This document shows, piece after piece, positions 413 through 15,539 of a DNA stretch of 15,539 bases. The DNA is from an uncultured Nitrospirales bacterium (GTDB lineage Bacteria; UBA10199; JADGCS01). Position numbers and translations under genes: made by a program. Each line of letters starts with the position of its first letter. Position 1 is the stretch's first letter. The notes under the pieces were generated by a model. That model worked only from the letters and a program-made list of their open reading frames with translations, did no database searches and was not told where the DNA came from. Where the stretch lies: positions 1 to 15,539 of the forward strand of contig CAZGMS010000082.1 in assembly GCA_964526915.1 (NCBI GenBank). Direction: 5' to 3'.

Positions 413-474
413 AATATGCTCCTTGTTTTGTTATAGGCCATATATGACCTATAAAACTGATAAGACCTGTAAAA

Positions 475-1377: not shown

Positions 1378-1380
1378 ATT

Positions 1381-1650
1381 TTACTCCAAATTCACCTTAT
1401 CCACCACGCCGCAAATGACTGAGTGAAAAGGGTCTTCCCGTTTGCCCAGTATTTGTCTGGCGCAGTTACCTTCTTGCTCCACCAAAACCACATCGCCCAC
1501 ACCCGCTTGTACGGAATCAAATGACAAGAAGGATTTCCCCTTGTCGTTTCCGTGTTCATCAACCGGTTGCACAATCAGCATTTTGTGTCCTTGGTAGGCC
1601 GGTTGCTTGATGGTGGCGACCACATTGCCAATGACTCTGCAGAGGATCAT
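1381..1650 (-). CDS. BMC vertex protein BMC-P (EutN/PduN/CcmL family), paralog 1
   Basis: 89 aa, MILCRVIGNVVATIKQP...GVGDVVLV is the canonical EutN/CcmL fold signature. AAGGAG RBS. The start overlaps the stop of the upstream BMC-P (ATGA). Confidence 0.9.
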   Translation of the reverse strand: MILCRVIGNVVATIKQPAYQGHKMLIVQPVDEHGNDKGKSFLSFDSVQAGVGDVVLVEQEGNCARQILGKREDPFHSVICGVVDKVNLE

Positions 1651-1997
1651 TTGGTCTCCTTTGGTCCGTCGGAGCTCAAATGAGCGGAGGCGACCTCTTC
1701 AAAAATATTTTGTTTGTTCGCGATCCCTTTGTCCTCCACAGTCAATTCGTCCACAATCCCTGTGATGGCCGCATCTACCGGCGCGAACGGGTTGGGCAGG
1801 GCCAGTGTGGATTCTTTGGCCAGCGTGTAATAAACAATCTCCTGCGGGCCAGCTTGCACAGTGTCGATGGCGGCAATTGGTCCGCCGTCAGGACGATACT
1901 GTTCATCAAGCGGCTGGATCATCAGTATCTTCAGGTTCTGGATGCCGGGGTCTTTGACAGTGGCAACAACCGTGCCGATGACTTTAGCTAGTTTCAT
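1647..1997 (-). CDS. BMC vertex protein BMC-P (EutN/PduN family), paralog 2, with C-terminal extension
   Basis: MKLAKVIGTVVATVKDP...LKILMIQPLDE is the EutN/PduN signature. 116 aa with an extra C-terminal tail. Confidence 0.85.
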   Translation of the reverse strand: MKLAKVIGTVVATVKDPGIQNLKILMIQPLDEQYRPDGGPIAAIDTVQAGPQEIVYYTLAKESTLALPNPFAPVDAAITGIVDELTVEDKGIANKQNIFEEVASAHLSSDGPKETK

Positions 1998-2099
1998 AAA
2001 AAATAGTCTCTGATTGTTTTAATCTGGGCTTAAGGCTCAAGGCACAAGGTGTAAGGCGTCAAAATCGCCCTATGCCTTACGCCTTTAGCCATGCGCCCT

Positions 2100-2657
2100 T
2101 TACCAATACACTCCCCTTGCCAACATCTCTGGATGCGGTGCCTCGATGATTTCGCACCCAGCCAACATACCCGTGTTTTTGACAAATTCCTTTGCCCGTT
2201 CCATTGAGGCCTGAACATCGCACAATGCGCCCGTGATCATAAAATACCCTTTGCCCCCCAGGCCGTTGGCCAGTCTGACTTCCACGAGTTTGCTGTCGGT
2301 CGCCTTGGCCGCGATATCGGCGGCTTCAACACAGGTTGCGATCGAAAATGTTTCAACAATCCCGAGCGCACCAAAATGATCAATCACATTTGTTCCTGTG
2401 ATGGCAGGGATGAGGTCTGGGTGTGCGTGTGGCAGGAACATGTGGCTTACGATCATGTCATGTCCGATCTCGATCCCTTTTTTTAGGGATTCCTCCACAT
2501 CGGCCACCTCACCGCAAATGAGCACCATGTATTTGCCCGGGCAGATGGCATGGGTTTCGAGAACGCGCACAGGCGCCTTCTTGACCATCTCATCGGTGGT
2601 CTTGAACCCTTTGGCGACAGATTTGAATTCGATCATGGCGAGTGCTGGTTCAATCAT
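2100..2657 (-). CDS. PduT-like tandem-BMC-domain shell protein (BMC-T) with a conserved Fe-S-ligand cysteine
   Basis: 185 aa with two BMC domains. The first carries ICPGKY, matching the PduT Cys38 4Fe-4S ligand motif. The second is canonical (ALGIVETFSIATCVEAADIAAKAT...GKGYFMITG). The size matches PduT (184 aa). Confidence 0.85.
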   Translation of the reverse strand: MIEPALAMIEFKSVAKGFKTTDEMVKKAPVRVLETHAICPGKYMVLICGEVADVEESLKKGIEIGHDMIVSHMFLPHAHPDLIPAITGTNVIDHFGALGIVETFSIATCVEAADIAAKATDSKLVEVRLANGLGGKGYFMITGALCDVQASMERAKEFVKNTGMLAGCEIIEAPHPEMLARGVYW

Positions 2658-2672
2658 AAAGTGTAAAGGCTC

Positions 2673-4016
2673 CTAGCGCTGAGCCTGAATTTCAATGGTC
2701 GTTTCCGAAACGGATTTCACCACACCAGAAATCGAGGCGTGGTAGTTGGTCCCCAAGGCCCCTGCTGGGCAGGGCGCAATCAAATCTCCCAAGCTGACAG
2801 TCTGACCCTGTTTGACAACAGGCAGGGATTTGGCTCCCACATGCCGGTGCAAGGGGACAATCACATCAAAAACATTTTGATAACCCAGATAAGGGGTTTC
2901 TTTTTTGTATTTCAGTAAATCCAGTTTTTTAAGAAGCACATCAATCGCCACCTTGCGGTCTTCATAGGCACTGTTGCAGGTGGTGGGCTTGCTGTTGTGC
3001 GGGTTTTTCACGCCTTTGGCAACGAGTTCCCTGCGGTAAGCGGCATAGATTTTTTTGGGGGAGAGACGCATGACATCGCACGCGACCATCTCGCACATCC
3101 CGCACTGACTGCACAAAAAGGCCGATGTGATGTTTTGCGTGGGTTCAGATAAATTGTAATCGATGGTGCGCATGGTGGCATGCGGGAAAATCGCGTGCCC
3201 CAACAGGTTGCGAGGGCAGAGGTCGGTACAGCGGAAACACTGACAACATGCCGCCTTGGAGAGTTTGATCATTTGCCCTACGCTGAGGGTCTTGGCGCGC
3301 ACTACAAAATGATCGCGTGGCAACACAAGCACACCACTGCAGGTTTTGGCGATGCCGAGAGAAAGGTCATCAACGATATTGCCCATCATGGGACCGCCAT
3401 CAATCACGACAGGGTTATCGGTAGTGATTCTGCCTGCCAGGGCGAGGAGTGTTGTGTAGGGGGTGCCGATGGGGACCTTGACGACGCAGGGTTTTTCGAC
3501 TTCACCGGTAATGGTTACCATTCTCTCGGTGACAGGCTTGCCATTGACGGCGTCGGTCATTTGGTAGAGAGAAAGGACGTTGCTCACGACCACGCCCACG
3601 TTGAGTGGCAGGCCACCTTCGGGGATGATCCGTTTTGTCGCATCATAAACAGTCAAGAACTCATCACCTGCGGGATAATAATTTTGAAGTTTGTGAATAT
3701 GAATATTTTGTTTGGGATCGAGTGCCTTGGTGAGCGCGTTCACCACATCGGTATAGTGCCCTTTGACAGCGATGATTCCCTGTTTGGCGCCGGTGGTCTT
3801 CATGGCCAGGGCAACACCTGTAACCACCTGATCCGCGTGTCTGATCATGAGGGTCTTGTCGGTGTTGAGCAGGGGCTCACATTCGGAACCATTGGCGAGC
3901 ACGGTGTCCACGCTGGCTTTGAGTTTGATGTGCGGGGGGAACCCGCCGCCACCGGCACCCACGATGCCTGCATTAAAGACGGAGTTGATGATATCGTTTG
4001 CTGTCAAATGGTTCAT
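2673..4016 (-). CDS. PduS-like RnfC-family Fe-S flavoprotein (BMC-associated oxidoreductase)
   Basis: Collinear with PduS throughout: GIVGAGGGGFPPHIKL, YPAGDEFLT, GGPMMG, two Cys clusters (CCQCFRCTDLCPRNLLGH and CSQCGMCEMVAC), and a C-terminal GALGTNYHASISGVV. The likely start at 4016 overlaps the AldDH stop by 1 nt (TGATG); the ORF track extends it to 4049. Confidence 0.9.
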   Translation of the reverse strand: MNHLTANDIINSVFNAGIVGAGGGGFPPHIKLKASVDTVLANGSECEPLLNTDKTLMIRHADQVVTGVALAMKTTGAKQGIIAVKGHYTDVVNALTKALDPKQNIHIHKLQNYYPAGDEFLTVYDATKRIIPEGGLPLNVGVVVSNVLSLYQMTDAVNGKPVTERMVTITGEVEKPCVVKVPIGTPYTTLLALAGRITTDNPVVIDGGPMMGNIVDDLSLGIAKTCSGVLVLPRDHFVVRAKTLSVGQMIKLSKAACCQCFRCTDLCPRNLLGHAIFPHATMRTIDYNLSEPTQNITSAFLCSQCGMCEMVACDVMRLSPKKIYAAYRRELVAKGVKNPHNSKPTTCNSAYEDRKVAIDVLLKKLDLLKYKKETPYLGYQNVFDVIVPLHRHVGAKSLPVVKQGQTVSLGDLIAPCPAGALGTNYHASISGVVKSVSETTIEIQAQR

Positions 4017-5470
4017 CAAATAATCCTGAAATACCCCGAGACCACGCACCGCCTGATTTTGGTAAAGTGGCGAGCGGTGGTCACGCCCTCACCTGTGGGT
4101 GAGGCGATCGTAAAGGACGCGGGCCCTTCGCCGTCCATGCCCAATCCGGACAGAGCCATCCCGTTTTTCACAAAAATGGAGGTGCCCATCTTCACGGCCA
4201 TGTTGTGCAGGTTTTCGATATTCTTGGAATGCATGGCCGAGGTGTGGAAGCGTCCCCCCTCGAGCTCGTACGCGCAGTCGATGGCTTGATTCACATTGCC
4301 CACGCGGATGAAAGGCACCACGGGCAGGAGCATTTCGATTTGCGCGAACGGGTGTTTGTGATCGGTTTCGGTGATGGCAAGCCTGATGGCGGGGTCCACA
4401 TCAATCCCAATTTGTTTCAAGATGTGCTGAACGTCTTTGCCCACGAAATCCTTGTTGGGGTGGTCACCGTCCACAATCACTTTTTCGAGTCGTTTGGCGT
4501 GATATGGTGTGAGTTCAAACGCGCCGCTTTTCAGCAGGGCTTTTTTAAACGGATCGGCGGCTTTTTCTGTCACAATGATTTCTTTTTCGATGGCGCAAAT
4601 GATGTTGTTGTCGCAACTCGATGAGGTGATGATGTCGCGGGCGGCTTTGTCGAGATCGGCCGTTTCGTCCACCACAACAGGCGGGTTGCCGGGACCTGCC
4701 GCGACCACACGTTTGCCTGTGCCCATGGCGGCCTTGACCACAGCGGGTCCGCCGGTCACCACCAGAAGTTTAATGTCCTTGTGATTCATGAGCTGGTTGG
4801 CCGAGGCAATGGTGGGGGTCGCGATGGTGGTGAATAAATTGGGGGGGCCGCCTTCACTGATGACGGCCTGGTTCATGAGGTCAATCACAAAGACCGAGAT
4901 TTTTTTGGCTGTGGGGTGCGGGTTGAAAACCACCGTGTTGCCTGCGGCGATCATGCCGATCCCGTTGCAGATGATGGTTTCTGTGGGGTTGGTGCAGGGA
5001 GTGATGGACCCGATCACACCCCAAGGGGCCTTTTCCAAAAGGGTAAACCCGTGATCACCTGTGAAGGTTTGTGGCTCGATGTCTTCAACGCCCGGTGTTT
5101 TGTTGATGGCCAACAGATTTTTTTTGATCTTGTCTTCGACTCTGCCCAGACCGGTTTCTTCACGGGCCATCTTTGAGAGCAGTTCCACATTGGCTTTGCA
5201 GAGGTCCCTGATTTTTTGGATGATGCGTTTGCGTTGTTCGAGTGAGATTTGTTTGAAATCGTCCAGAGCCTTGACGCTGGCCGCGATGGCGTCGTCGATC
5301 GAACCAAAACAGCCACGGGAACCAGTGAACGCGGCGTCTTTTTTGGGTTCCTGTTTGGAGACGGTCGCTGTTGTGTTCGCAGGACGTCCAGCAGGCGGCG
5401 TGTCTTTGACCTGAATTTGAGACACCACCTTATCGACAATGGAACTGATTTGTTCGTCGGAGAATTTCAT
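4016..5470 (-). CDS. CoA-acylating aldehyde dehydrogenase (PduP/EutE family) with N-terminal encapsulation peptide
   Basis: 484 aa. The N-terminus MKFSDEQISSIVDKVVSQI is an encapsulation-peptide helix followed by a linker. ALDH fold with catalytic Cys region SSSCDNNIICAIEKE and the PduP-like GPGNPP motif. Confidence 0.9.
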   Translation of the reverse strand: MKFSDEQISSIVDKVVSQIQVKDTPPAGRPANTTATVSKQEPKKDAAFTGSRGCFGSIDDAIAASVKALDDFKQISLEQRKRIIQKIRDLCKANVELLSKMAREETGLGRVEDKIKKNLLAINKTPGVEDIEPQTFTGDHGFTLLEKAPWGVIGSITPCTNPTETIICNGIGMIAAGNTVVFNPHPTAKKISVFVIDLMNQAVISEGGPPNLFTTIATPTIASANQLMNHKDIKLLVVTGGPAVVKAAMGTGKRVVAAGPGNPPVVVDETADLDKAARDIITSSSCDNNIICAIEKEIIVTEKAADPFKKALLKSGAFELTPYHAKRLEKVIVDGDHPNKDFVGKDVQHILKQIGIDVDPAIRLAITETDHKHPFAQIEMLLPVVPFIRVGNVNQAIDCAYELEGGRFHTSAMHSKNIENLHNMAVKMGTSIFVKNGMALSGLGMDGEGPASFTIASPTGEGVTTARHFTKIRRCVVSGYFRII

Positions 5471-5477
5471 AGGTCAG

Positions 5478-5682
5478 CGTGAATCGTGAATCGTGGATTG
5501 TGGATCGTAAAATGGTTTGTCATCCCAGCGGAAGCTGGGATCCAGAACTGTTGACAGTAGGGATTTCTGCTTTGGTTCGACTTTGCTCACCACCCTGAGC
5601 GCCTGTCGAAGGGTCGCAGGAATGACATACCTACTCAACAATTCGCATTTCGATCCACGATCGACGACCCACAACCCACGAT
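5478..5682. repeat. MITE-like element copy A: heptad-repeat terminal inverted repeats flanking hairpin 1 plus an expanded hairpin 2
   Basis: Left end (CGTGAAT)2-CGTGGAT-TGTGGAT-CGT, then AAAATGG + GTCATCCCAGCGGAAGCTGGGATCCAGAACTGTTGACAG ... CGCAGGAATGAC...CAACAATTCGCATTTCGA. Right end TCCACGA-TCGACGA-CCCACAA-CCCACGA. It fills the whole gap between the BMC-P stop (5684) and the AldDH start (5470). Confidence 0.75.
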
Positions 5683-5683
5683 A

Positions 5684-5977
5684 TTACGGATTCTTCACAT
5701 ACCTTTTGTCGCCATCGATTTCCAAAATATCGACAATGGCCATGATGACGGCATCGACCGGTTTGTTTTCGGTTGCTTGTGTCATTCTGGCCGAGGAGCC
5801 GCTGGCGACCAAGACAACTTCGCCAACACCCGCACCGACAGAATCCGCGGCCACCACAAAACTGCCAGTGGGTTTGCCATCGGTGTCGACATATTTGACC
5901 AGTTGCAACCTGAGGCCCTCAAGTTTTTCGTCCTTGCGGGTGGCCACAACGGTTCCTACAATTTTGCCTAGTTGCAT
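5684..5977 (-). CDS. BMC vertex protein BMC-P (EutN/PduN family), paralog 3
   Basis: True start [27 protein letters not shown] at 5977. The track ORF is artificially extended into the repeat. Canonical EutN/CcmL signature. Confidence 0.85.
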
Positions 5978-5984
5978 AAAACAG

Positions 5985-6187
5985 CGTGGTTCGTGGATCG
6001 TGGGTCGTGGATCGTGGATCGAAAAATGGCTTGTCATCCCAGCGAAAGCTGGGATCCAGAACTGTTGACAATAGTCATTCCTGCTTTCGCAGGAATGACT
6101 ATCCGCTCAACAATTCGCATTTTGACCCACTATTCACGACCCACTATCCACGATTCACGACTCACGATCCACGATCCACGACCCACG
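5985..6187. repeat. MITE-like element copy B (most complete copy): 5 heptads, hairpin 1, hairpin 2, 9 heptads
   Basis: CGTGGTT-CGTGGAT-CGTGGGT-CGTGGAT-CGTGGAT, then AAAAATGGCTTGTCATCCCAGCGAAAGCTGGGATCCAGAACTGTTGACAATAGTCATTCCTGCTTTCGCAGGAATGACTATCCGCTCAACAATTCGCATTTTGA, then nine copies of NYCACGA. It sits between the BMC-H stop (6193) and the BMC-P start (5977). Confidence 0.8.
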
Positions 6188-6192
6188 AAAAA

Positions 6193-6489
6193 TTACTTTG
6201 CCACTTTTTTGACATTGCGACCCAAAGGCAAAGCCACATCGATATTCTCGTGTGGTCTGGGGATGACGTGAACGGAAACGAGTTCGCCAACCTTTTCGGC
6301 TGTTCTGGCGCCGGCTTCGGTCGCGGCTTTCACGGCGGCCACATCACCTCTGACAATCGCGGTCACAAAACCACCACCAATTTTTTCGTAACCAACAAGT
6401 TCAACCTTGGCGGCTTTCACCATGGCGTCACTGGCCTCGACCATTGCGACAAAACCTTTGGTTTCGATCATTCCTAATGCGTCTGCCAT
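6193..6489 (-). CDS. BMC hexamer shell protein BMC-H (PduA/EutM/CcmK family)
   Basis: True start [60 protein letters not shown] at 6489 with AAGGAG RBS. The track ORF is over-extended upstream. First gene of the operon. Confidence 0.95.
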
Positions 6490-6600
6490 ATCAATCTCCT
6501 TTATTAACGATTTAGAGGCCCCCTTATTACTATTACAATAGGGAACCAAGTTTGGTCGGCATAGACTTTTTTTTTGGGGACTGTCAATAGTTAATGATAT
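6490..6600 (-). promoter_or_regulatory. Candidate sigma70-type promoter and structured leader of the BMC operon
   Basis: On the minus strand: TTGACA (plus 6583-6588), an 18-nt spacer, TATGCC (plus 6558-6563), and a ~60-nt leader containing a CCCT...AGGG inverted repeat with a TATTAC direct repeat just before the RBS. It lies in an AT-rich, >400-bp non-coding region. Confidence 0.3.
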
Positions 6601-6717
6601 TATCGTTAAAGAAAACCACATTCAAAATCATTTTATAATAACACGAGATATTTAGTGATATATGATGCTATTTAATGGTTGATGATTAGTGCCAATTGTG
6701 ATAATCAGTTTCTAGAT

Positions 6718-6912
6718 TGCGGATTGTGGCTCGTCATTGAGAGGGTGAACTGCGTTGGAATTGCCAAAAGGCAATTTTAATACTGTGCCCCAAGGGATAC
6801 CGGGGTAATCCAGAAATGATACTGTGGATTGCTTCGATTCGCTTTGTGAATCTCGCAATGACCAGCTGTTTGTACTTTTAGACGATTCACGAACATCGAT
6901 CCACGATCCACT
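6718..6912. repeat. Degenerate copy (E) of the heptad-TIR element
   Basis: Left end GCGGATTGTGGCTCGT matches copy A CGTGGATTGTGGATCGT at about 14 of 17 positions. The internal CCCCAAGGGATACCGGGGTAATCCAGAAATGA is homologous to hairpin 1 + ATCCAGAACTGTTGA. Right end CGATTCACGAACATCGATCCACGATCCAC. Confidence 0.4.
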
Positions 6913-6918
6913 CTTCTC

Positions 6919-7104
6919 ATGCAATATTCCGAAGTCATGACAACCAACGAGGCCATGAAGTACCTCAAAATCACCCGCAAGACCCTGCTCAAATTGGTCA
7001 AAACGGGTGAGCTCAAGGGCGCCAAGGTGGGCAAGGATTATCGCTACCTCAAAAGCGAGATCGACAAGTTTCTCAAAGGGGAAAAAGAGGAACGGCTGTT
7101 TTGA
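6919..7104 (+). CDS. Excisionase-family helix-turn-helix DNA-binding protein (alternative start at 6937)
   Basis: MTTNEAMKYLKITRKTLLKLVKTGELKGAKVGKDYRYLKSEIDKFL is the excisionase/MerR-type HTH pattern. It begins right after a heptad TIR, and its stop TGA lies in a GAATCGT heptad remnant. No clear RBS. Confidence 0.6.
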   Translation: MQYSEVMTTNEAMKYLKITRKTLLKLVKTGELKGAKVGKDYRYLKSEIDKFLKGEKEERLF

Positions 7105-7113
7105 ATCGTATCT

Positions 7114-7179
7114 TGTCATCCCTGCGAAGGCAGGGATCCAGTTTCTGTCATCCCTGCGTGGTCCCTGCCTTCGCAGGGA
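7114..7179. repeat. Hairpin 1 (GTCATCCCTGCGAAGGCAGGGATCCAG) followed by a second fused hairpin (GTCATCCCTGCG-TGGT-CCCTGCCTTCGCAGGG)
   Basis: Same hairpin 1 as the MITE core but with compensatory changes in the stem (CAGC/GCTG becomes CTGC/GCAG). It sits immediately upstream of the GIY-YIG gene. Confidence 0.6.
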
Positions 7180-7199
7180 GGGAACCAGAGCATAGATTT

Positions 7200-7487
7200 A
7201 TGAAGACATACTATGTGTATATTCTTGCCAGCAAAAAAAATGGCACATTGTATGTCGGTGTTACGAGCAATTTGTCCAAAAGAATATTTGAGCACAAACA
7301 AGACCTGGTGGATGGGTTCACAAAAAAATATGGGGTTCATTCTTTGGTTTATATTGAACAAACAAATGATGTGAACGACGCATTGCTTAGAGAAAGAAGA
7401 TTGAAGGCTTGGAAGAGGCAATGGAAAATAGATCTGATTGAAAAATCGAACCCGAATTGGAACGATTTGTATGAAGATTTGTTTTAG
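7200..7487 (+). CDS. Small GIY-YIG nuclease family protein (~95 aa, COG2827-like)
   Basis: True start MKTYYVYILASKKNGTLYVGVTSNLSKRIFEHKQ (GIY...YVG motif with downstream R and E). The track ORF is over-extended upstream through the hairpins. Confidence 0.85.
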   Translation: MKTYYVYILASKKNGTLYVGVTSNLSKRIFEHKQDLVDGFTKKYGVHSLVYIEQTNDVNDALLRERRLKAWKRQWKIDLIEKSNPNWNDLYEDLF

Positions 7488-7494
7488 GAAACAT

Positions 7495-7520
7495 GGATTC
7501 CTGCTTTCGCAGGAATGACA
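7495..7520. repeat. Hairpin 2 (GGATTCCTGCTTTCGCAGGAATGACA), the MITE core second hairpin, immediately downstream of the GIY-YIG gene
   Basis: Near-identical to GTCATTCCTGCTTTCGCAGGAATGAC in copy B. The following GCTATAAATTCGG resembles the MITE GCTCAACAATTCGCA. Confidence 0.6.
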
Positions 7521-7537
7521 AAGCTTTGAGCTTTGAG

Positions 7538-7768
7538 CTATAAATTCGGACACGTCCCGCCACTACAACAACTCCCTGCCTCTGAACACGATTTGGCAGA
7601 GGGACAGGTGGCGTTTGATTTCGAGATCATCCTGCTTGGCACACTGATGAGTTTTTCCAAATCAAGGGACTCGCATTTTGGACAGGCGATGGTATTCTGA
7701 CGCGTCGTGGAGACAATCAATTCAAAAACAGCGTCACATTTTTTGCATTTGTATTCGAATAAGGGCAT
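7538..7768 (-). CDS. FmdB-family zinc-ribbon protein
   Basis: True start MPLFEYKCKKCDAVFELIV...IACPKCES (CxxC...CPxC FmdB pattern) with a Cys/Gly/Ser-rich tail. The track ORF is extended through the upstream tandem repeat. Confidence 0.75.
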   Translation of the reverse strand: MPLFEYKCKKCDAVFELIVSTTRQNTIACPKCESLDLEKLISVPSRMISKSNATCPSAKSCSEAGSCCSGGTCPNL

Positions 7769-7779
7769 GCGTCCCAATA

Positions 7780-7813
7780 CAATTGGCAATGGGCAATTGG
7801 CAATGGGCAATTG
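7780..7813. repeat. Tandem 14-mer CAATTGGCAATGGG x2.4, i.e. three palindromic CAATTG hexamers at 14-bp spacing
   Basis: Seen directly. It lies between the stop of the 889-aa gene (7837) and the start of the FmdB gene (7768). Confidence 0.7.
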
Positions 7814-7836
7814 TATGGAGCAACATCAGGGCGTTG

Positions 7837-10506
7837 TTATGCGGCTGTTCTGGGGAGCCTGTTCTCGTCCATGATTCTTTGATGGGCCAGTCTTTGCAGG
7901 TATGTTCGGATGATGGGATATTTCTCCATCATGTCCTTCAGATCGGCCTCGCTAAAACGAAGGACGGTGACATGGCCTTGCGCACTGACATTTGCCTTGC
8001 GTGCCTGATGGTTGATGGAGGCCATTTCGCCGACTACCGTTCCGGGACCAACTGTGATTCTACGGTCATGGGGCGCATATGACCAGATCTCCGCTAGGCC
8101 ATCCACAATCAGAAAGGCGTCTTTGTTGGTGTGATCGCCCTCGGCGATAAATCGATTGCCCGCGAACATGGTTTCTTCGCTGGCAATCATGAGCAAGGCG
8201 GTGAGGATGGCGTCCGAAATATCAGGCAGGGCCTGTTTGAGCAGGCGATAGTATTTTTTTCGGAGTTCTCTAACGTGTCGCAGCGTCTCAGTGTGCTGAC
8301 CAAGTACCTCGGTCAGCGTTTTGGCAGAAAAAGTCAAAACCTGTGAGGGCATGGAGGCCACAGCACTGGCGTTACGAGGTTCACCAAAGAGTGCTCCCTC
8401 ACCGATGATCCCAAAGGGCACATGGGTGAGTTCCGAACCGTCAGCGTAAAGTCTGAATCCGCCCGAGACAATCATTCTGACAGAGGTGTCTGTTGCGTCG
8501 CTTCCTGCTGTTGCCTCATCTTGAAGCATCAACACCGCTCCTATGTCAAACGTGGCGAGTGTGGTGGCCGCGGCCAAAGCCTGCTTTTGCTCGGTGGACA
8601 GGCCCGCCAAAAGGGGTGACCATTCAATGAAGCGCAAATTTCTCTCTTGTATGCTGTCTTCTGTTTCGGGCTGTTTGGGAAAATGATTGGCCAGCGAAAT
8701 AAATCCCTGATGACCCGCCAATAGTTTGGGGACACCCACCTGGGCCGCTCTGCCGTCACTCACGTGATAGAATTTGACCCGATTCAACACCTCATGCAGT
8801 TCGACTCCTTTTTTTTCTGCAAAAGTCTTGAGCCACGCCAGGGTGACTTCGGGATCGGTATGCAGACCCTTCATGCCAGCCTCAATCAAAATCATGGGAG
8901 GGTTGGGCTGATCCCAGGTGCTTTCCAAAAGATGTTGGTAACGCAGAATTTCGGCCTTGCGTGCCGGGTGCATATCAGGAAACAGCCGATCCAGTTCGGC
9001 AGAATCAGCCAAAGTATCTCCACTGATGTAGAGCGCGAGTTGGCCCCCTGTGTCCGCAGGCGCTGTCCAGACTTCAATGGCCTCGGCGGCCACAGAATGA
9101 CAGGTGTAGTGGGTTCTGAGCCACATGCCCCGGACCGCAACGAACTGTCGAGGTTTGAGTTCCACAAAATTCAATTGAGTCAAACCCTCGGGTTTGCCAT
9201 TAACGGCGATGCTTAGGGTGTATGCATCCTGACAAATATTGTACAAGGTTTTTGTTCCGTACCAATTGAGTTTTGGGCACAGGAACATGAGTTCTATACT
9301 GGCAGGAGTGAAATGATCGGTGTGATCATGTGTGATGGCGATGCCCTCCACCGCGTTCAAGGGAATCCCGTTTTGTATGAGATAAGCAACCGTCTGTGCC
9401 GGGGGGTCGATCAGCGTAACCTTGCCATCCTTCCAAAGCATGAACCCGCTGGTGCCCTCGCCCGAAAAATAATCCGCTGTGCTGATGGGCCAAAGACCTG
9501 CTTCGCCGTCTATCAAGACCCGTTTGCGGATTTCCTGAAACTTGGGATCGAACATGGTTCTGGGATCAACATCGAGATTTTCCACGGGCGGGGCGAATTC
9601 CGGTTTGCCCAGATCGATAGTGCGTAGCAAATGCCCGCGATCATAAATTTCGTACGCCATGGGTCCTTTTTCCTGAGCCTGTTTGACGACAACGCTACCA
9701 TCCCCGATCGTGATTTCGTCGTTCTCAAAATGGGTGACTCTGGAAAAGTCCTCGGATGCCTTGTTGGCGAAACGCTGTGTTTCAGTGCCCAAATCGGGAA
9801 TGCCCTCTTCATTGGAAGCATGTTCGTCTCGTACACTGTCGGTCAGTTTTTGTGGGTTGCGTCCCTGAAAGGCCTCTTTCAAAAAGGCACTGACTTTCCC
9901 TGCGTCACCCGGGGTTGGCAAATAAAAATTAAACCCAGCTTGTTGCAAGAGCGGCCAAAAGTAGGGATAACGGGTAAAGTCTACCGCGTGATAACCCGTT
10001 GTAAATGTCGTGTAACCTTTGACAGGCACATAGTGCAGGGGCATGTAATGACCGAGTTTATCAGAGGGTGTTTTGCCGGGTTGTCCGCCGTTTTTAAAGA
10101 ACATCTGAATGGCATCGAGGTGCGATCCCATGGGGAGCCCCAACTGTACCCAACCTTGAGACGTGTAAACGGCAACGCCACCGCGCCTCATTTTTTGCAC
10201 ATAACCGTATGGTTTGCCAATGGGGCCTGTGTTATCGGAACCGCCTGTTCCACCCGGGCGATCAGTGGATTGTGGGGCGTCCGAGCTTGGTGTTGCAGGT
10301 GCGGCAAGCCTTTGCGCTGCAGGTTTTCTTGTTTGCCTTCCCGTCAAATGTGCAGTTTGGGCCGTTGCACCAGCAAAGGCGGCATAACGACTCGCCAAGC
10401 TTTGTGTTGCCTTACCGCGAGTTGGATTGCCTGTGGAAAGGATGAAAACGTTTGGTGCGACGGGTTGTGCGAGTGGGGCTCTTAAGGCGGTGGTTGCTGT
10501 GTTCAT
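7837..10506 (-). CDS. Large multidomain protein: disordered Ala/Thr/Pro-rich N-terminus, an unknown domain, a metallo-beta-lactamase-fold hydrolase domain, and two C-terminal cyclic-nucleotide-binding (CAP-like) domains
   Basis: 889-aa ORF with GGAGG RBS 5 nt upstream of ATG 10506. MBL motifs ITHDHTDHF (HxHxDH), later THYTCHS, YISGDT and FYHVSDG. The cNMP-binding signatures FGIIGEGALFGEPRNASAVA and VGPGTVVGEMASINHQARKANVSA are each followed by coiled-coil-like helices. Confidence 0.8.
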   Translation of the reverse strand: MNTATTALRAPLAQPVAPNVFILSTGNPTRGKATQSLASRYAAFAGATAQTAHLTGRQTRKPAAQRLAAPATPSSDAPQSTDRPGGTGGSDNTGPIGKPYGYVQKMRRGGVAVYTSQGWVQLGLPMGSHLDAIQMFFKNGGQPGKTPSDKLGHYMPLHYVPVKGYTTFTTGYHAVDFTRYPYFWPLLQQAGFNFYLPTPGDAGKVSAFLKEAFQGRNPQKLTDSVRDEHASNEEGIPDLGTETQRFANKASEDFSRVTHFENDEITIGDGSVVVKQAQEKGPMAYEIYDRGHLLRTIDLGKPEFAPPVENLDVDPRTMFDPKFQEIRKRVLIDGEAGLWPISTADYFSGEGTSGFMLWKDGKVTLIDPPAQTVAYLIQNGIPLNAVEGIAITHDHTDHFTPASIELMFLCPKLNWYGTKTLYNICQDAYTLSIAVNGKPEGLTQLNFVELKPRQFVAVRGMWLRTHYTCHSVAAEAIEVWTAPADTGGQLALYISGDTLADSAELDRLFPDMHPARKAEILRYQHLLESTWDQPNPPMILIEAGMKGLHTDPEVTLAWLKTFAEKKGVELHEVLNRVKFYHVSDGRAAQVGVPKLLAGHQGFISLANHFPKQPETEDSIQERNLRFIEWSPLLAGLSTEQKQALAAATTLATFDIGAVLMLQDEATAGSDATDTSVRMIVSGGFRLYADGSELTHVPFGIIGEGALFGEPRNASAVASMPSQVLTFSAKTLTEVLGQHTETLRHVRELRKKYYRLLKQALPDISDAILTALLMIASEETMFAGNRFIAEGDHTNKDAFLIVDGLAEIWSYAPHDRRITVGPGTVVGEMASINHQARKANVSAQGHVTVLRFSEADLKDMMEKYPIIRTYLQRLAHQRIMDENRLPRTAA

Positions 10507-10790
10507 GCTGTCCTCCCCATTTTATGTGATGATACCAGCCGCATAGTGCTTTTGGTGTCTGGTGTCAAAATTTTCTTGTAGACAGGGGGCATGCGTCAGG
10601 AAATGGTGTCATGTCATCACGAGTAGGTCGCCGCAGGCGGACGACGTGGTGATCTCCATATTGTTTCTTGTGGATCGCCACGCTTCGCCATGAGCCTGTA
10701 AATGGCTCATGGCTCCGCTCGCGATGACGGTGACTTATCACTAATTCATTTTCATTGAACAAGGCCAGGTTTTCTGTTTTATGGCTGGGC

Positions 10791-12086
10791 ATGGATGTCC
10801 TTTTTTTGTCCCGCCTGCAATTTGCCGTGGCCACCCTGTTTCATTTTATCTTTGTCCCACTGACTTTGGGCCTCTCGATCATTGTGGCGATTTTCGAAAC
10901 ACGCTATGCCAGAACTGGTGACGAGCTTTATCTCAAGCTCACCAAATTCTGGGGCAAACTTTTTCTCATCAATTTTGCCTTGGGGGTGGTGACGGGAATC
11001 ACACTGGAGTTTCAGTTTGGGACCAACTGGTCCCGTTATTCGGCCTTTGTGGGCGATATCTTTGGATCACTGTTGGCCATCGAGGCCACGGTCGCGTTTT
11101 TTTTGGAATCCACACTCGTGGGGGTGTGGATTTTTGGCTGGCAAAAACTCTCGCCCAAAAAGCACGCGCTCATCATGTGGCTCATTGCTGTGGCGGGCAC
11201 GCTCTCGGCGGTGTGGATCATTCTGGCCAATGGGTGGATGCAGAATCCAGTGGGTTACGTGATCAAAAATGGACGGGCAGAGCTGGCAAGTTTTAGTGCC
11301 GTGTTTTTTAACAAGTACGCGTGGCTGGAGTTTTTTCACACCATGAGTGCGTCGTATTTATACAGCGCCTTTTTTGTGATGGGAGTGAGCGCGTATCATC
11401 TCATTAAAAAACAACATGTCGATTTTTTCACACGTTCTTTCAAATTGGCCCTCTGGTTTGGTCTGGTGTGTTCGGTTTTGGTGGCCTTTAGCGGTGACCT
11501 GAACGGCGTGAACGTGGCCAAAGTCCAACCTGCCAAACTCGCCGCCATGGAATCACACTGGCAAACGAGCGCCAACGCGCCCATGAAGCTTCTGGTTTGG
11601 CCCGATGAAGAGGCCGGTAAAAATGCATTTGAAGCCTTTTCGGTGCCGTCGGGATTGAGTTTGCTGGCGTTTCACGATCCTCATGCCACAGTGAAAGGGT
11701 TGCGCGATTTTGCCCAGGAGGATCGTCCACCTGTGCTCATCACCTTTGTGGCGTTCAGGGTCATGGTGGCCATTGGGGGCTTGCTGATTCTGCTTTGCGT
11801 GATCGGGGTTTTCAAACGCAACCGCCTGACCGGGTCCAAATGGTATTTGAGGGCCATGTTGTTTACCTTGCCTCTGCCTCTTGTGGCGATTGAACTCGGC
11901 TGGGTGGTGACTGAGGTGGGGCGGCAACCCTGGATTGTGTATGGGCTGATGCGCACGAGCGATGCGGTCTCGCCGGTCGTGACCTCGCAGGTGTTGACCT
12001 CGCTCATTTTCTTTTTTCTGGTTTATGGACTCTTGGGCGCTGTGGGGGTGTTGTTGATGGCAAGACACGTGAATCGTGGTTCGTGA
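10791..12086 (+). CDS. cydA: Cytochrome bd-type quinol oxidase subunit I (CydA), short Q-loop type
   Basis: MDVLFLSRLQFAVATLFHFIFVPLTLGLS...KFWGKLFLINFALGVVTGITLEFQFGTNWS...GRQPW aligns with E. coli CydA. At ~431 aa it lacks the long Q-loop insertion. The track ORF begins at an upstream in-frame TTG; ATG 10791 matches the family N-terminus. The last 5 codons and the stop lie inside the MITE. Confidence 0.93.
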   Translation: MDVLFLSRLQFAVATLFHFIFVPLTLGLSIIVAIFETRYARTGDELYLKLTKFWGKLFLINFALGVVTGITLEFQFGTNWSRYSAFVGDIFGSLLAIEATVAFFLESTLVGVWIFGWQKLSPKKHALIMWLIAVAGTLSAVWIILANGWMQNPVGYVIKNGRAELASFSAVFFNKYAWLEFFHTMSASYLYSAFFVMGVSAYHLIKKQHVDFFTRSFKLALWFGLVCSVLVAFSGDLNGVNVAKVQPAKLAAMESHWQTSANAPMKLLVWPDEEAGKNAFEAFSVPSGLSLLAFHDPHATVKGLRDFAQEDRPPVLITFVAFRVMVAIGGLLILLCVIGVFKRNRLTGSKWYLRAMLFTLPLPLVAIELGWVVTEVGRQPWIVYGLMRTSDAVSPVVTSQVLTSLIFFFLVYGLLGAVGVLLMARHVNRGS

Positions 12087-12217
12087 ATCGTTGTTCGTGG
12101 GGTGCTCTGTCATTCCAGCCTGTCAGCCATAGGACTGATCCCGCTCTGCGTGCGCTGGGATGACAAAACACATTTCGATTCACGATTCACGATCCACGAT
12201 CCACGATCTGCGAGAAT
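12068..12217. repeat. MITE-like element copy C between cydA and cydB (heptad TIRs plus a variant long hairpin)
   Basis: CGTGAAT-CGTGGTT-CGTGAAT-CGTTGTT-CGTGGGG, then GTCATTCCAGC-(34 nt)-GCTGGGATGAC, then AAAACACATTTCGA + TTCACGA-TTCACGA-TCCACGA-TCCACGA-TCTGCGA. Confidence 0.7.
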
Positions 12218-12219
12218 TT

Positions 12220-13248
12220 ATGTTTTTACAATCAATCTGGTTTTTTATTTGGGGGCTTTTATGGGCCATCTTTTTTGCGACCGATGGTTTTGATTTTGGC
12301 GTGGGCACGCTCTACCCTTTTTTGGGCAAGACAGAGCATGACAAGCGCGTGATGATCAATGCCATTGGGCCTTTGTGGGATGGCAATGAGGTGTGGCTCA
12401 TCACCGCAGGTGGGGTGACGTTTGCAGCCTTTCCTCAGGTTTACGCCGTGATGTTCTCAACGCTGTACACCCCTCTCATGATCATCTTGTTTGCGCTCAT
12501 CCTGCGCGGTGTGGCGTTTGAGTTCAGGGGCAAAGTGGATTGTCCCCGGTGGCTCAAAATTTGGGACGCAGCAATTTTTATTGGGAGTGTTTTGCCCGCT
12601 TTGTTATTTGGTGTGGCGTTTGGCAATATTTTTATGGGCATTCCGTTTGATGCTCAGGGCCTGAATCATGGCGGGTTACTCGATCTGATCAACCCGTATG
12701 GTTTACTCACGGGCTTGTTGTTTTTGCTGTTGTTCATCCAGCATGGGGCCTTGTGGCTGGCGGTGCGGTCAGGCTCTGCCCTGCATGACCGGGTCGTCAC
12801 TGTTGTGCGCACCAACTGGTTTGTTTTGCTGATAGTGGCGGTTTTGTTTTTTGTGGCCACGTATTTTGTTACGGATTTGTACGACAATTATATTGCACAG
12901 CCAGTTTTGTGGGTTATTCCTGGCCTGGTAGTTCTTTCGTTATTTGGTGTGCGTTTATTTTTGCGGCAAAAAAAATATTTATGGGCGTGGGTCGCTTCGG
13001 CGGTCACAATTGTGGGGGCCACATTTTTTGGCATCACGGGGCTTTTTCCCCGACTTTTTCCATCAAGCATAGACTCTCAATTTGATCTGACGGCGTTCAA
13101 TGCCTCGTCATCGCAGGACACACTTACCATTATGCTGGTGGTGGTGGCTGTCTTTATCCCCATAGTGATTGCATACCAAGTCTGGGCGTACCGGCTTTTT
13201 TCGCATAAAATTGACCACGACAATTTTGAGCGGGTTGTGGTGTATTGA
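12220..13248 (+). CDS. cydB: Cytochrome bd-type quinol oxidase subunit II (CydB)
   Basis: True start MFLQSIWFFIWGLLWAIFFATDGFDFGVG (DGFDxGVG CydB signature). Polytopic membrane protein. The track ORF is over-extended upstream through the repeat. Confidence 0.9.
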   Translation: MFLQSIWFFIWGLLWAIFFATDGFDFGVGTLYPFLGKTEHDKRVMINAIGPLWDGNEVWLITAGGVTFAAFPQVYAVMFSTLYTPLMIILFALILRGVAFEFRGKVDCPRWLKIWDAAIFIGSVLPALLFGVAFGNIFMGIPFDAQGLNHGGLLDLINPYGLLTGLLFLLLFIQHGALWLAVRSGSALHDRVVTVVRTNWFVLLIVAVLFFVATYFVTDLYDNYIAQPVLWVIPGLVVLSLFGVRLFLRQKKYLWAWVASAVTIVGATFFGITGLFPRLFPSSIDSQFDLTAFNASSSQDTLTIMLVVVAVFIPIVIAYQVWAYRLFSHKIDHDNFERVVVY

Positions 13249-13287
13249 AAAGGCGTAAGGCGCAGGCCTCAAGGTGCAAGGTTCATT

Positions 13288-14622
13288 TCAAATCAGCTTG
13301 TCCCAACAACCAATTGCGTAGAGAGGAATGTGGTAGAGGGTGTAACCGTTGCGTTGCACAATCGAATAGGGGGCCAATGAAACGATCACAGCCTTGGCAT
13401 TATTGAAACGGCTATGATAAATGTCCAGAGCCTTGTATTGGTGTGTGTTGGGCTTGAGGGCCGCTTTGCATTCTAGTGGAATGATTTCGAAGGGCGTTTT
13501 GACCACAAAATCGATTTCAAAATTTTTATCCTTAAACCCGCAAACGTTGGGATGGTCGTCTAGCAGTTCGCTACACAGCATTTGTTCAATCAATCCGCCC
13601 AAAGGCTCTCGCAAGTTGGCATCCAGCGTTTCCAATGCCGAAATTCTCGGCAAGCCGGTTTCTCGCAGATGTTTTGCCAGCCCCACATCAAACAAAAATC
13701 GTTTGGGATAAAAGCTGTGTGTGCTTTCTGGATGGTGTGTTTTTTGTTCAATCTTGTGAATGAGCCTCCAGCCTTCAAGGACAGATAAAATGTTATCGGC
13801 AAGGCGGTTGTTATTTTTGATCAGGGCTGTTTTTTTATAAGAGCCACCCAGTGTGTTGGCCACACTGTTGATGGCGCGGTAGAACAAATTGGCATATTCT
13901 TCAGAAAAGAATTTCAAAAAATCTTCTTTGATGGATTCGAGGTAAGCAGAAAAATCTTGTGTGAGATTGCTGTTGCCGGCTGTGGTCAGATAATTGGTGC
14001 AGATTTGCGGTAGGCCGCCGCAAAGAAGATATTGATCGAGCAAGATGAGGAGTGTGGTGTGGTCGTTGGCAGAAAGCCCGATGAGGTTATTTGGATTGTT
14101 TATGATTTCTTGTAATCCATATTTGGTGTGAGGATTTTTTATCTGTTCGTTTGCACGTATAAACTCTGCGTAGGAAAAGGGGTGCACGGTCATTTGAGTG
14201 TAGCGACCAACAGGAATGCGAATTTCCGGATTTCTGAAAAGGCGGTTCATCATGGATCCACTGAGAATGACTGTTTGATGTGGCCAGTCTTCCTTCATTT
14301 GCCGCACGTAGCGCCCCAATAGATATGATTCGTTGGCTTCATCTATGAAAAGAACGGTGTCTTGCGAAGCGACAAAGTTGGTTTCTCTTTTGAGGACCTG
14401 TTCAAATTCATTAAATGATGCCGTCTTGTCGATTTGAGCGCAAAGAATTTTGTTGGTCTCGAGGTTGATTTCTATGTATGTTTTTTTTGATCGTTCCAAT
14501 GCCAAACGAACAGCCGTTGTCTTGCCTACTTGTCGTACACCATTGATGATAAGAACATTTTTATTTAATTCATCCAATGATATATAATTATTGATGTTAT
14601 TTGACAGGTCTCTGAAAATCAT
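13288..14622 (-). CDS. AAA+ superfamily ATPase with C-terminal DUF4143-like domain (COG1373 family)
   Basis: Walker A GVRQVGKTT near the N-terminus, Walker B-like VLFIDEAN, and a C-terminal FEIDFVVKTPFEIIPLECKA nuclease-like (PD-ExK-type) segment. The gene is markedly AT-rich compared with its neighbours. Confidence 0.8.
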   Translation of the reverse strand: MIFRDLSNNINNYISLDELNKNVLIINGVRQVGKTTAVRLALERSKKTYIEINLETNKILCAQIDKTASFNEFEQVLKRETNFVASQDTVLFIDEANESYLLGRYVRQMKEDWPHQTVILSGSMMNRLFRNPEIRIPVGRYTQMTVHPFSYAEFIRANEQIKNPHTKYGLQEIINNPNNLIGLSANDHTTLLILLDQYLLCGGLPQICTNYLTTAGNSNLTQDFSAYLESIKEDFLKFFSEEYANLFYRAINSVANTLGGSYKKTALIKNNNRLADNILSVLEGWRLIHKIEQKTHHPESTHSFYPKRFLFDVGLAKHLRETGLPRISALETLDANLREPLGGLIEQMLCSELLDDHPNVCGFKDKNFEIDFVVKTPFEIIPLECKAALKPNTHQYKALDIYHSRFNNAKAVIVSLAPYSIVQRNGYTLYHIPLYAIGCWDKLI

Positions 14623-14629
14623 GGTTTAT

Positions 14630-14830
14630 GATACGTAATTATGACCATAATTGCAACAAAAATGTTCTAAGAATGACCATATTTAGAACACGAAGGTAAT
14701 TTTCTGATAATGCTGGGCAATGTGTTTCAGGGCGTCCAATAATTAGGACATTTGTCTCATAATTATGACACTTGTCTTAGTACTGGGACAGTCTCTGGGA
14801 CAGGTACTGGGACTGGTCCTTCAAAAACAT
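14630..14830. promoter_or_regulatory. Operator-like palindromes and direct repeats upstream of the ATPase gene
   Basis: Perfect IR AATTATG-AC-CATAATT (about 14635-14650). IR GTTCTAA-N12-TTAGAAC. Two direct repeats ATAATTAKGACAYTTGTCT each containing GACA-NN-TGTC. Three copies of TACTGGGAC. Confidence 0.3.
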
Positions 14831-15085
14831 CCTAACCCATTATAATCACACAAAATATTATTTTATGGTATTGGCACAGGGATTGCAGTCCGTAAGACGA
14901 GTACGTGCCCATTTTGTTACAGTACTGGCGTGTTTACGAGGGGAATAAAACAGGCATGAAAACTGGCGGGGCAACTCACAAAAAGAGCGTGGCTTGTGGC
15001 TTAGCGGTTATTGCACCGCGTCAACAAATATTATGCGAATGAACAAGCAGTCTTGTTTTCTATGATTTATGCGACTAGGGAGAAG

Positions 15086-15141
15086 CGTGGATCGTGAATC
15101 GTGAATCGCGGATCGTGAATCGTGGATCGTGGATCGTGGGG
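15086..15141. repeat. Heptad-repeat inverted repeat, left arm (8 x CGTGGAT/CGTGAAT) flanking the four-helix-bundle gene
   Basis: CGTGGAT-CGTGAAT-CGTGAAT-CGCGGAT-CGTGAAT-CGTGGAT-CGTGGAT-CGTGGGG, read directly. Confidence 0.75.
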
Positions 15142-15148
15142 AAGTGAG

Positions 15149-15511
15149 ATGAAAATTCAATCGTATAAAGATTTGGAAGTTTGGAAGACAGGGCTCGAGA
15201 TTGTAAAACTTGTTTACAGTGTGACCAAAAAATTCTCAAAGAGTGAGTCGTTTGGCCTGACGTCCCAAACGCAGAGAGCGGCAGTATCAATACCAACAAA
15301 TATTGCCGAAGGATTTGCGCGACGATACACAAAAGAGTTTACTCGATTTTGCTATATCGCGTTGGGTTCATGTTCAGAATTAGAAACTTTGGTGATCATT
15401 GCGAAGGAACAAACACATTTAACGGGAGATGATTTTAAGAAGTTGACAGAATTGTTGGATCACGAAAGTCGAATGTTAATGAGCCTAACCAAAAAACTGG
15501 TTAACCATTGA
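15149..15511 (+). CDS. Four-helix-bundle protein of the 23S rRNA intervening-sequence family (TIGR02436-like)
   Basis: MKIQSYKDLEVWKTGLEIVKLVY...QRAAVSIPTNIAEGFARRYTKEF...ALGSCSELETL matches the conserved pattern of IVS-encoded four-helix-bundle proteins. Confidence 0.8.
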   Translation: MKIQSYKDLEVWKTGLEIVKLVYSVTKKFSKSESFGLTSQTQRAAVSIPTNIAEGFARRYTKEFTRFCYIALGSCSELETLVIIAKEQTHLTGDDFKKLTELLDHESRMLMSLTKKLVNH

Positions 15512-15539
15512 CATCGATCCACGATCCACGATCCACGAT
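15512..15539. repeat. Heptad-repeat inverted repeat, right arm (CATCGAT-CCACGAT x3), truncated by the window end
   Basis: Reverse complement of the left-arm heptads. It begins 1 nt after the stop codon. Confidence 0.7.

Follow-up and report, generated by a model that had tools for sequence, protein, structure and literature searches.

What is the function of a bacterial protein in which a predicted hydrolase is followed by two cyclic-nucleotide-binding domains, and does it act alone or with its neighbors? This question is raised by a gene on the minus strand of contig CAZGMS010000082.1 (GenBank assembly GCA_964526915.1) from an uncultured Nitrospirales bacterium (GTDB lineage Bacteria; UBA10199; JADGCS01), of which we analyzed a stretch of 15,539 nucleotides (positions 1 to 15,539; hereafter, the window). 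An initial annotation, made from the sequence without database searches, described the gene as a novel fusion of a disordered N-terminus, an unrecognized domain, a metallo-beta-lactamase (MBL)-fold hydrolase, and two cyclic nucleoside monophosphate (cNMP)-binding domains, apparently cotranscribed with an FmdB-type zinc-ribbon gene. Our analyses suggest that it probably encodes a cyclic-nucleotide phosphodiesterase whose own substrate activates it via the two C-terminal sensors, with a catalytic module that includes a family-specific N-terminal domain (N-domain). The combination of domains was confirmed but is not new, and the gene is a divergent example of a known architecture.

Domain organization of the 889-residue protein

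The gene (positions 7837 to 10506, minus strand) encodes 889 aa followed by a stop codon, as obtained by open reading frame (ORF) calling and translation. Inspection of the sequence revealed a Shine-Dalgarno motif (GGAGG; positions 10512 to 10516, minus strand) 5 nt upstream of the ATG at position 10506, and the partial protein P0005, which was annotated independently, has the identical start. Full-length homologs (53% and 33% identity) and an AlphaFold2 model also supported the whole gene as one unit comprising the N-domain, the MBL domain, and the two cNMP-binding domains. The model was based on a 68-sequence alignment (mean predicted local distance difference test [pLDDT] score, 86.8; predicted template modeling [pTM] score, 0.87); an earlier run with four sequences (pLDDT, 61) was not used. 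The pTM score indicates that the multidomain assembly is predicted to be packed with confidence. The gene and its five-part layout are real, and all of the parts listed in the initial annotation, including the FmdB gene downstream, were recovered; its descriptive points were correct.

The catalytic domain (residues 336 to 612; positions 8671 to 9501, minus strand) has the MBL fold and contains all five MBL motifs, with D367, H393-x-H395-x-D397-H398, H470, D497, and H549, plus H581. Its HxHxDH metal-binding motif reads HDHTDH (residues 393 to 398; positions 9313 to 9330, minus strand) and lies within the stretch ITHDHTDHF (residues 391 to 399), which the initial annotation had also cited; it is the variant found in the clade of the window protein (the window clade), the family motif being HCHADHD. 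Among 68 relatives, D367, H393, H395, D397, H398, H470, D497, and H549 were invariant (68 of 68), and R516 and H581 were invariant in 67 of 68. The Pfam MBL matches to the protein were all below threshold (16.8, 16.2, and 13.5 bits). The assignment is nevertheless secure because the metal-binding and catalytic residues are invariant in the 68 relatives, and the HxHxDH motif with downstream His/Asp ligands noted at the outset is indeed a complete binuclear-metal MBL site.

We compared an MBL profile of the family with solved structures. It matched Apyc1 (7t28, 1.1e-12; 7u2s, 5.5e-9), BA1088 (1zkp, 2.7e-10), and Bacillus subtilis YhfI (6kns, 5e-10). The RNA-processing MBL proteins were far weaker (CPSF73, 3.9e-6; Integrator-11, RNase J, and RNase Z, 1e-5 or weaker). 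The top two fold matches of the MBL domain were likewise 3',5'-cNMP phosphodiesterases, which ranked ahead of nucleases. The closest solved relatives by fold and sequence are cyclic-mononucleotide phosphodiesterases, namely, Apyc1, B. subtilis YhfI, and yeast class II PDE1, the last of which showed no detectable sequence similarity in the family MBL profile search. The activity of Apyc1 and YhfI on cyclic mononucleotides has been demonstrated experimentally, with YhfI preferring cAMP/cGMP, and 7T28, 7U2R, and 7U2S are structures of Apyc1 (PMC9117128). The initial annotation had wavered between a class II-type cyclic-nucleotide phosphodiesterase and a nuclease; the ranking of folds and sequences favors a cyclic-nucleotide phosphodiesterase and leaves the RNA-processing enzymes well behind.

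Two cNMP-binding domains follow the MBL domain. Domain A (residues 625 to 748; positions 8263 to 8634, minus strand) was defined by the Pfam cNMP_binding model, segment hidden Markov models (HMMs), conservation, and fold matches, and its phosphate-binding cassette is GEGALFGEPRNASAVA (E703, R711). Domain B (residues 760 to 883; positions 7858 to 8229, minus strand) was defined by segment HMMs and by the best Pfam stretch (residues 783 to 863), and its cassette is GEMASINHQARKANVSA (E827, R836). Pfam detected both stretches in the protein (E value, 1.5e-22), and Foldseek superposed the C-terminal pair on the tandem cyclic-nucleotide-binding domains of PKA/PKG regulatory subunits. No helix-turn-helix (HTH) follows domain B, after which the protein ends within 6 residues (residue 889). 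Two CAP-like domains without an HTH, as originally described, are thus borne out by Pfam. The Gly-Glu and Arg residues are intact in both cassettes (GEGALFGEPRNA and GEMASINHQARKA) and are invariant among the four closest homologs.

The cassettes also bear on whether the same enzyme could lack substrate activation, with C-terminal domains that bind a ligand other than cAMP or cGMP or that act constitutively or as inhibitors. The cassette Arg is followed by an unusual residue (N in domain A, K in domain B), and trypanosome PKA regulatory subunits, which share the fold, have nucleosides rather than cAMP as their ligands (PDB titles). Across the family, the cassette of domain A is better conserved than that of domain B, which has degenerated in many members (Arg in 22 of the 61 nongap sequences at this column). 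Against such a departure stand the Gly-Glu and Arg residues kept in both cassettes of the window protein and its closest homologs, and we regard it as rather improbable.

A protein identical to the window product (P0001) carries the NCBI name "CAP family transcription factor." Neither Pfam nor NCBIfam detected an HTH in the window protein, NCBIfam has no model for it, and the CRP model matched the cNMP-binding part only (13.2 bits; cutoff, 266). We therefore rejected an identity as a CRP/FNR transcription factor, for which the C-terminal HTH DNA-binding domain is missing. The NCBI name is wrong because P0001 lacks a DNA-binding domain, and it is an annotation error that spread from the cNMP-binding domains.

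The region of approximately 340 aa preceding the MBL domain, in which the initial annotation recognized no features, consists of two parts. The first is an Ala/Pro/Thr/Gln-rich extension (residues 1 to approximately 95; positions 10222 to 10506, minus strand) that is poorly conserved and has pLDDT values of <50 at residues 1 to 83 and 85 to 88, supporting the proposed disorder of the N-terminus. This head is missing from the core form of the family (approximately 725 aa), in which homologs begin at the N-domain. The second part is the N-domain itself (residues 100 to 335; positions 9502 to 10209, minus strand), a conserved domain of approximately 235 aa that was delimited by profile HMM and conservation and is family specific. 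G109, within an RGG motif at residues 108 to 110, and E242 are invariant (68 of 68), and D131, F177, Y180, G215, and P237 are nearly so. Residues 100 to 335 had no Pfam match and no PDB sequence match; no relation between the N-domain and the MBL domain was found either.

A family of bacterial and protist proteins

Word-indexed homolog searches gave 4 to 11 proteins and missed the wider family, which was revealed by an exhaustive HMMER search. In this search, a profile of residues 1 to 622 (i.e., without the cNMP-binding domains) was run against 1.84 billion cluster representatives and matched 493 of them at E values of ≤1e-3, 255 at ≤1e-10, and 30 at ≤1e-30. We applied four-segment HMMs to 186 family sequences to determine their domain order. 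The order N-domain, MBL, and two cNMP-binding domains was present in 119 of the 186, and a further 26 had the N-domain and MBL. In 167 of the 186, the MBL domain was directly preceded by the N-domain. On this basis, the N-domain plus MBL forms the constant module of the family, and the N-domain of approximately 235 aa is a fixed part of its catalytic module and an obligatory partner of the MBL domain, because the 119 full-order and 26 shorter sequences all have the pair. The claim of a novel domain fusion did not survive this comparison: among the hundreds of clusters in the family, no architecture is commoner, and the characterized phosphodiesterases PdeD and PdeE of Dictyostelium share it (see below).

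Pfam scanning of 54 family matches detected Lactamase_B in 51 and cNMP_binding in 44. One of the 54 was fused to an adenylate/guanylate cyclase, and another was fused to a class I phosphodiesterase domain; these fusions tie the family to cyclic-nucleotide metabolism. The cyclase fusion is P0036, whose cluster includes the "guanylate cyclase" of Chloropicon roscoffensis (WZN66566.1). P0036 is a green-algal protein of approximately 1950 aa with two cyclase catalytic domains in addition to the module of N-domain, MBL, and two cNMP-binding domains, a layout that places cyclic-nucleotide synthesis and regulated breakdown on one polypeptide.

The bacterial members included proteins from metagenome-assembled genomes (MAGs) labeled "Deltaproteobacteria bacterium," from a UBA10199 genome, and from contigs with typical bacterial gene content. 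The protist members included proteins of Phytophthora, Chlorokybus, Rhodelphis, Aplanochytrium, Chrysoparadoxa, and Chloropicon; inspection of the family matches by length, composition, and cluster names revealed no dictyostelid. On the basis of MBL-domain identity, the family splits into three groups. The MBL domains of the window clade are 35 to 70% identical among themselves; those of P0025 and P0030, from a small second group, share 36% identity; and in the main group, those of bacterial P0050 and protist P0061 are 50% identical. The motif HCHADHD was present in 111 of the 186 sequences, and the longer form HCHADHDS was present in 20. Judged by these comparisons, the window protein belongs to a rare, divergent bacterial branch of the family.

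Variants were observed at both ends of the module. Some members of the window clade have no cNMP-binding domains (positions 8708 to 11506 of locus L007, from a UBA10199 MAG, and proteins P0014 and P0017 to P0020). The L007 ORF and P0014, a cluster representative with a similar layout, have a different N-terminal region of approximately 420 to 430 residues, which in L007 is partly hydrophobic. P0004 and P0007 extend approximately 400 residues beyond the second sensor domain.

Predicted catalysis and regulation

The Dictyostelium enzymes GbpA/PdeD and GbpB/PdeE are intracellular "class IIb" phosphodiesterases that carry two binding domains downstream of the MBL domain; once cGMP or cAMP occupies these, hydrolysis of the corresponding nucleotide is activated (PMC11988041, PMC8684759). 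The window protein resembles PdeD (GbpA, PDE5) and PdeE (GbpB, PDE6) in having an MBL domain followed by two C-terminal cNMP-binding domains without an HTH (PMC11988041) and in its HxHxDH metal motif. Two features of class IIb were found in it: HxHxDH with His/Asp/His ligands and two C-terminal cNMP-binding domains without a DNA-binding domain. The published signature of PdeD/PdeE is HCHADHDS (PMC3188802), and HCHADHD(S) is what the main branch of the family has, a branch that contains many protists. We place the family with PdeD/PdeE because of the signature in the relatives, the identical architecture, and the protist members. The window protein differs from PdeD/PdeE in being bacterial and of a divergent clade, in its disordered head of approximately 95 residues, and in its motif, HDHTDHFT, which retains the HxHxDH core only.

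The other known systems are less similar. Apyc1, a phage counterdefense (anti-Pycsar) protein, and B. subtilis YhfI are stand-alone MBL cyclic-mononucleotide phosphodiesterases, i.e., single-domain homodimers of approximately 250 aa that, unlike the window protein, have neither the N-domain nor sensors. Yeast PDE1 (class II, or IIa) has no cNMP-binding domains and has the signature HSHLDH (PMC3188802). The control logic proposed for the window enzyme has a parallel in mammals. Mammalian GAF-regulated PDE2 and PDE5 are phosphodiesterases allosterically activated by the cyclic nucleotide that they degrade; their catalytic fold (HD-type class I) and sensor fold (GAF) are unrelated to those considered here.

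Cyclic-nucleotide control of the MBL hydrolase, as first suggested from the sequence, is the best reading for a phosphodiesterase of this kind because the metal site is complete, the closest solved relatives are cNMP phosphodiesterases, and the cassettes are intact. We predict that the window enzyme is an MBL-type phosphodiesterase that acts in the cytoplasm on 3',5'-cyclic nucleotides, in "class IIb" after PdeD/GbpA and PdeE/GbpB. From these comparisons, we infer its substrate, its nucleotide specificity, the direction of its regulation (activation versus inhibition), and the role of the N-domain, as follows. The MBL domain would hold two metal ions through H393/H395/D397/H398, H470, D497, and H549 and would convert cAMP and/or cGMP to the 5'-NMP by opening the cyclic phosphate. 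The two C-terminal domains would sense the same kind of nucleotide, and binding would raise catalytic activity, so that the enzyme would become more active as its substrate rises and cyclic-nucleotide pulses would be sharpened and terminated. The N-domain, as a part of the catalytic module that is present even in relatives without sensors, probably has a role in oligomerization or in capping or shaping the active site. The disordered head would be a lineage-specific appendage.

Several observations weigh against this assignment. The Pfam Apyc1 model (PF23023, Anti-Pycsar_Apyc1) gave 11.7 bits on the window protein against a cutoff of 50, and the protein, which is not a stand-alone enzyme of approximately 250 aa, is outside that family. 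Its MBL domain is only 21 to 28% identical to those of the main group, it has HDHTDHF where the family has HCHADHD, so that the PdeD/PdeE signature HCHADHDS is not present, and its N-domain reads PMGSHLD in place of PPETIKD, the family sequence. Given this divergence in motif, N-domain, and MBL identity, its substrate or regulation could differ. The link to PdeD/PdeE is based on the architecture, an eight-residue signature in relatives, and eukaryotic family members. Literature searches found no enzymology for any bacterial family member. Finally, no cyclase was present in the 15.5-kb window (17 ORFs scanned with Pfam), in agreement with the original remark that none was visible nearby.

The same divergence around the metal motif and in the N-domain would fit an MBL hydrolase that acts on another small molecule under cAMP/cGMP control, such as a 2',3'-cyclic or linear phosphodiester, a PhnP-like phosphonate-pathway intermediate, a thioester, or a lactone. 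We consider this unlikely in view of the 3',5'-cNMP phosphodiesterases that form the top two folds and the fusion partners of the family (cyclase and class I phosphodiesterase). A sensor for a compound joined to a hydrolase for compounds of that type is, moreover, most simply explained as self-regulated turnover, as for PdeD/PdeE (PMC11988041).

A bolder proposal starts from the divergent motif HDHTDHF, the altered N-domain, the disordered head, and the relatives that swap sensors for hydrophobic or coiled-coil extensions. The window clade would then be a functionally shifted bacterial branch, and the N-domain would be a new domain, spread widely over bacteria and protists, that contributes to the mechanism of a phosphodiesterase for second messengers. 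We give this proposal little credence. Under it, the enzyme could possibly be tuned to noncanonical cyclic nucleotides (cCMP/cUMP or 2',3'-cNMP) and act as a host-side regulator of cyclic-nucleotide immunity, or the invariant Glu and the Asp of the N-domain could possibly provide the MBL enzyme with a new substrate-recognition or catalytic element.

Genomic surroundings and significance

The FmdB-family gene (positions 7538 to 7768, minus strand) lies 68 nt downstream of the 889-aa gene on the same strand. Its identity as a CxxC...CxxC zinc ribbon was confirmed (Zn_ribbon_8, 1.8e-13; PF09723, 50.7 bits with a cutoff of 34.4; TIGR02605, 53.1 bits with a cutoff of 31.3). Its start required correction: the ORF initially reported (positions 7538 to 7810) begins at a TTG inside a repeat, and the real start is most likely the ATG at position 7768 (MPLFEYKCKKC...), giving a product of 76 aa. 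The "CAATTG array" reported between the two genes exists and consists of 2.4 copies of a 14-nt unit, which has a subperiod of 7 nt (positions 7780 to 7813). The array region showed no stable RNA structure (z score, +0.87), and no terminator-like site or structure was detected in the 68-nt gap. We rejected the array as a regulatory element specific to the gene pair because it lacks stable structure and similar heptamer arrays occur in many intergenic gaps.

Judging from this arrangement, cotranscription of the 889-aa gene with FmdB is possible. A very stable 8-bp hairpin with a GAAA loop (positions 7497 to 7516, minus strand; -19.4 kcal/mol; z score, -4.26) lies just downstream of the FmdB stop codon and is preceded by a second short hairpin from an AGCTTTG repeat. 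The transcription unit probably ends at the GAAA-loop hairpin. Because no U-tract follows, this hairpin could be either a repeat element or a variant type of terminator. Further downstream, minus-strand ORFs at positions 7116 to 7553 and 6712 to 7119 were rejected as operon members, as they had no family matches and overlap plus-strand genes for a GIY-YIG nuclease (positions 7101 to 7487) and an excisionase-like HTH_17 protein (positions 6919 to 7104), both identified by Pfam. The latter two genes overlap each other in a low-GC stretch (positions 6919 to 7487; GC content, 0.41 to 0.45) that is convergent with FmdB, lies between it and a microcompartment locus, and may be a small mobile insertion. 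Upstream, the divergent cydAB genes (positions 10755 to 13248, plus strand; Pfam scan) bound the locus, and matches to a CRP-type operator in the divergent promoter shared with cydA did not exceed chance frequency. Given these surroundings, the unit of interest comprises at most two genes.

We then compared ten related loci (L001, L002, L004, L006, L007, and L021 to L025). Beyond local synteny among the closest three, no neighbor was common to them and the window or to one another; the contexts were unrelated and mostly housekeeping (e.g., ribosomal-protein, chorismate-synthase, and two-component genes). The ten loci contained no FmdB, cyclase, or defense genes, and no zinc-ribbon gene was listed beside the homologs in the related loci examined. 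Because the pairing is absent from every related locus, no functional link with FmdB is indicated. The FmdB gene is an incidental neighbor and not part of the system, and the 889-aa gene behaves as a stand-alone signaling enzyme.

These loci also speak to the hint in the initial annotation that such sensor-effector fusions are typical of defense systems. The protein would in that case be a cyclic-nucleotide-activated nuclease or other toxic hydrolase serving as an effector of anti-phage signaling, with the cNMP-binding domain gating a killing domain as in Pycsar. It shares with Pycsar effectors (e.g., PycTIR) a cNMP-binding domain as a built-in sensor, and its fold also matches 8jsk; its C-terminal region matches the PADLOC models for PycTIR and TIR effectors (2.9e-19), and the GIY-YIG gene and an AAA_14/DUF4143 ATPase gene lie within the window. 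The PADLOC matches, however, cover the generic cNMP-binding domain only (residues 753 to 886). Pycsar effectors have a single N-terminal sensor and a TIR or transmembrane output, and they are invariably encoded in a pair with a cyclase; the window protein has none of these traits. Neither the adjacent cyclase nor the conserved gene pair expected of a Pycsar/CBASS-like effector was found in the window or the related loci. With the architecture kept in many eukaryotes and nucleases ranking behind cNMP phosphodiesterases as fold and sequence neighbors, a defense role is very unlikely, and the hint was not upheld.

The remainder of the window contains a complete-looking bacterial microcompartment (BMC) locus (positions 475 to 6621, minus strand; Pfam), which we take to resemble the Planctomycetes/Verrucomicrobia-like type. 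On the minus strand, it comprises genes for BMC-H (positions 6193 to 6621), three EutN/BMC-P proteins (positions 5684 to 6037, 1647 to 1997, and 1381 to 1650), an aldehyde dehydrogenase (positions 4016 to 5470), an RnfC/PduS-like flavoprotein (positions 2673 to 4049), a tandem-BMC protein (BMC-T; positions 2100 to 2657), and a DeoC-family aldolase (positions 475 to 1377). The right end, with the AAA_14/DUF4143 ATPase gene (positions 13288 to 14622, minus strand) and a gene of the "23S rRNA-intervening sequence protein" family (positions 15122 to 15511, plus strand), is AT rich (GC content, approximately 0.40 to 0.43).

Tandem arrays with a 7-nt period occur across the window. The array at positions 7780 to 7813 is one of approximately ten; the arrays elsewhere (positions 5478 to 5508, 5651 to 5682, 5985 to 6021, 6127 to 6188, 6882 to 6911, 7522 to 7539, 12068 to 12100, 12176 to 12208, 15082 to 15139, and 15515 to 15539) have 3 to 9 copies of units such as CGTGAAT, CGATCCA, CGTGGAT, CCACGAT, and CAATGGG, and several lie in intergenic gaps. 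The genome of the 53%-identical homolog has similar arrays of 7 to 8 nt (L006, positions 4960 to 5434, 8928 to 8967, and 16296 to 16328). These arrays recall the short tandemly repeated repetitive (STRR) heptamer sequences of cyanobacteria.

The turnover of cAMP and cGMP in bacteria is generally credited to class III enzymes of the CpdA type. Our results draw attention to a large and unnamed family of bacterial proteins that is built like the substrate-activated PdeD and PdeE of Dictyostelium and for which there is no NCBIfam model and, for the N-domain, no Pfam model. The identity of up to 50% between bacterial and protist MBL domains in the main branch points to shared ancestry or gene transfer. 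The remaining interest lies in this unnamed and partly misannotated family, in its conserved and uncharacterized N-domain, and in the divergent clade. The window gene is one divergent example, useful for annotation and as an enzymology target, and introduces no new principle. If the proposed function is true, a phosphodiesterase that accelerates itself would allow bacteria to shape their cyclic-nucleotide signals into pulses.

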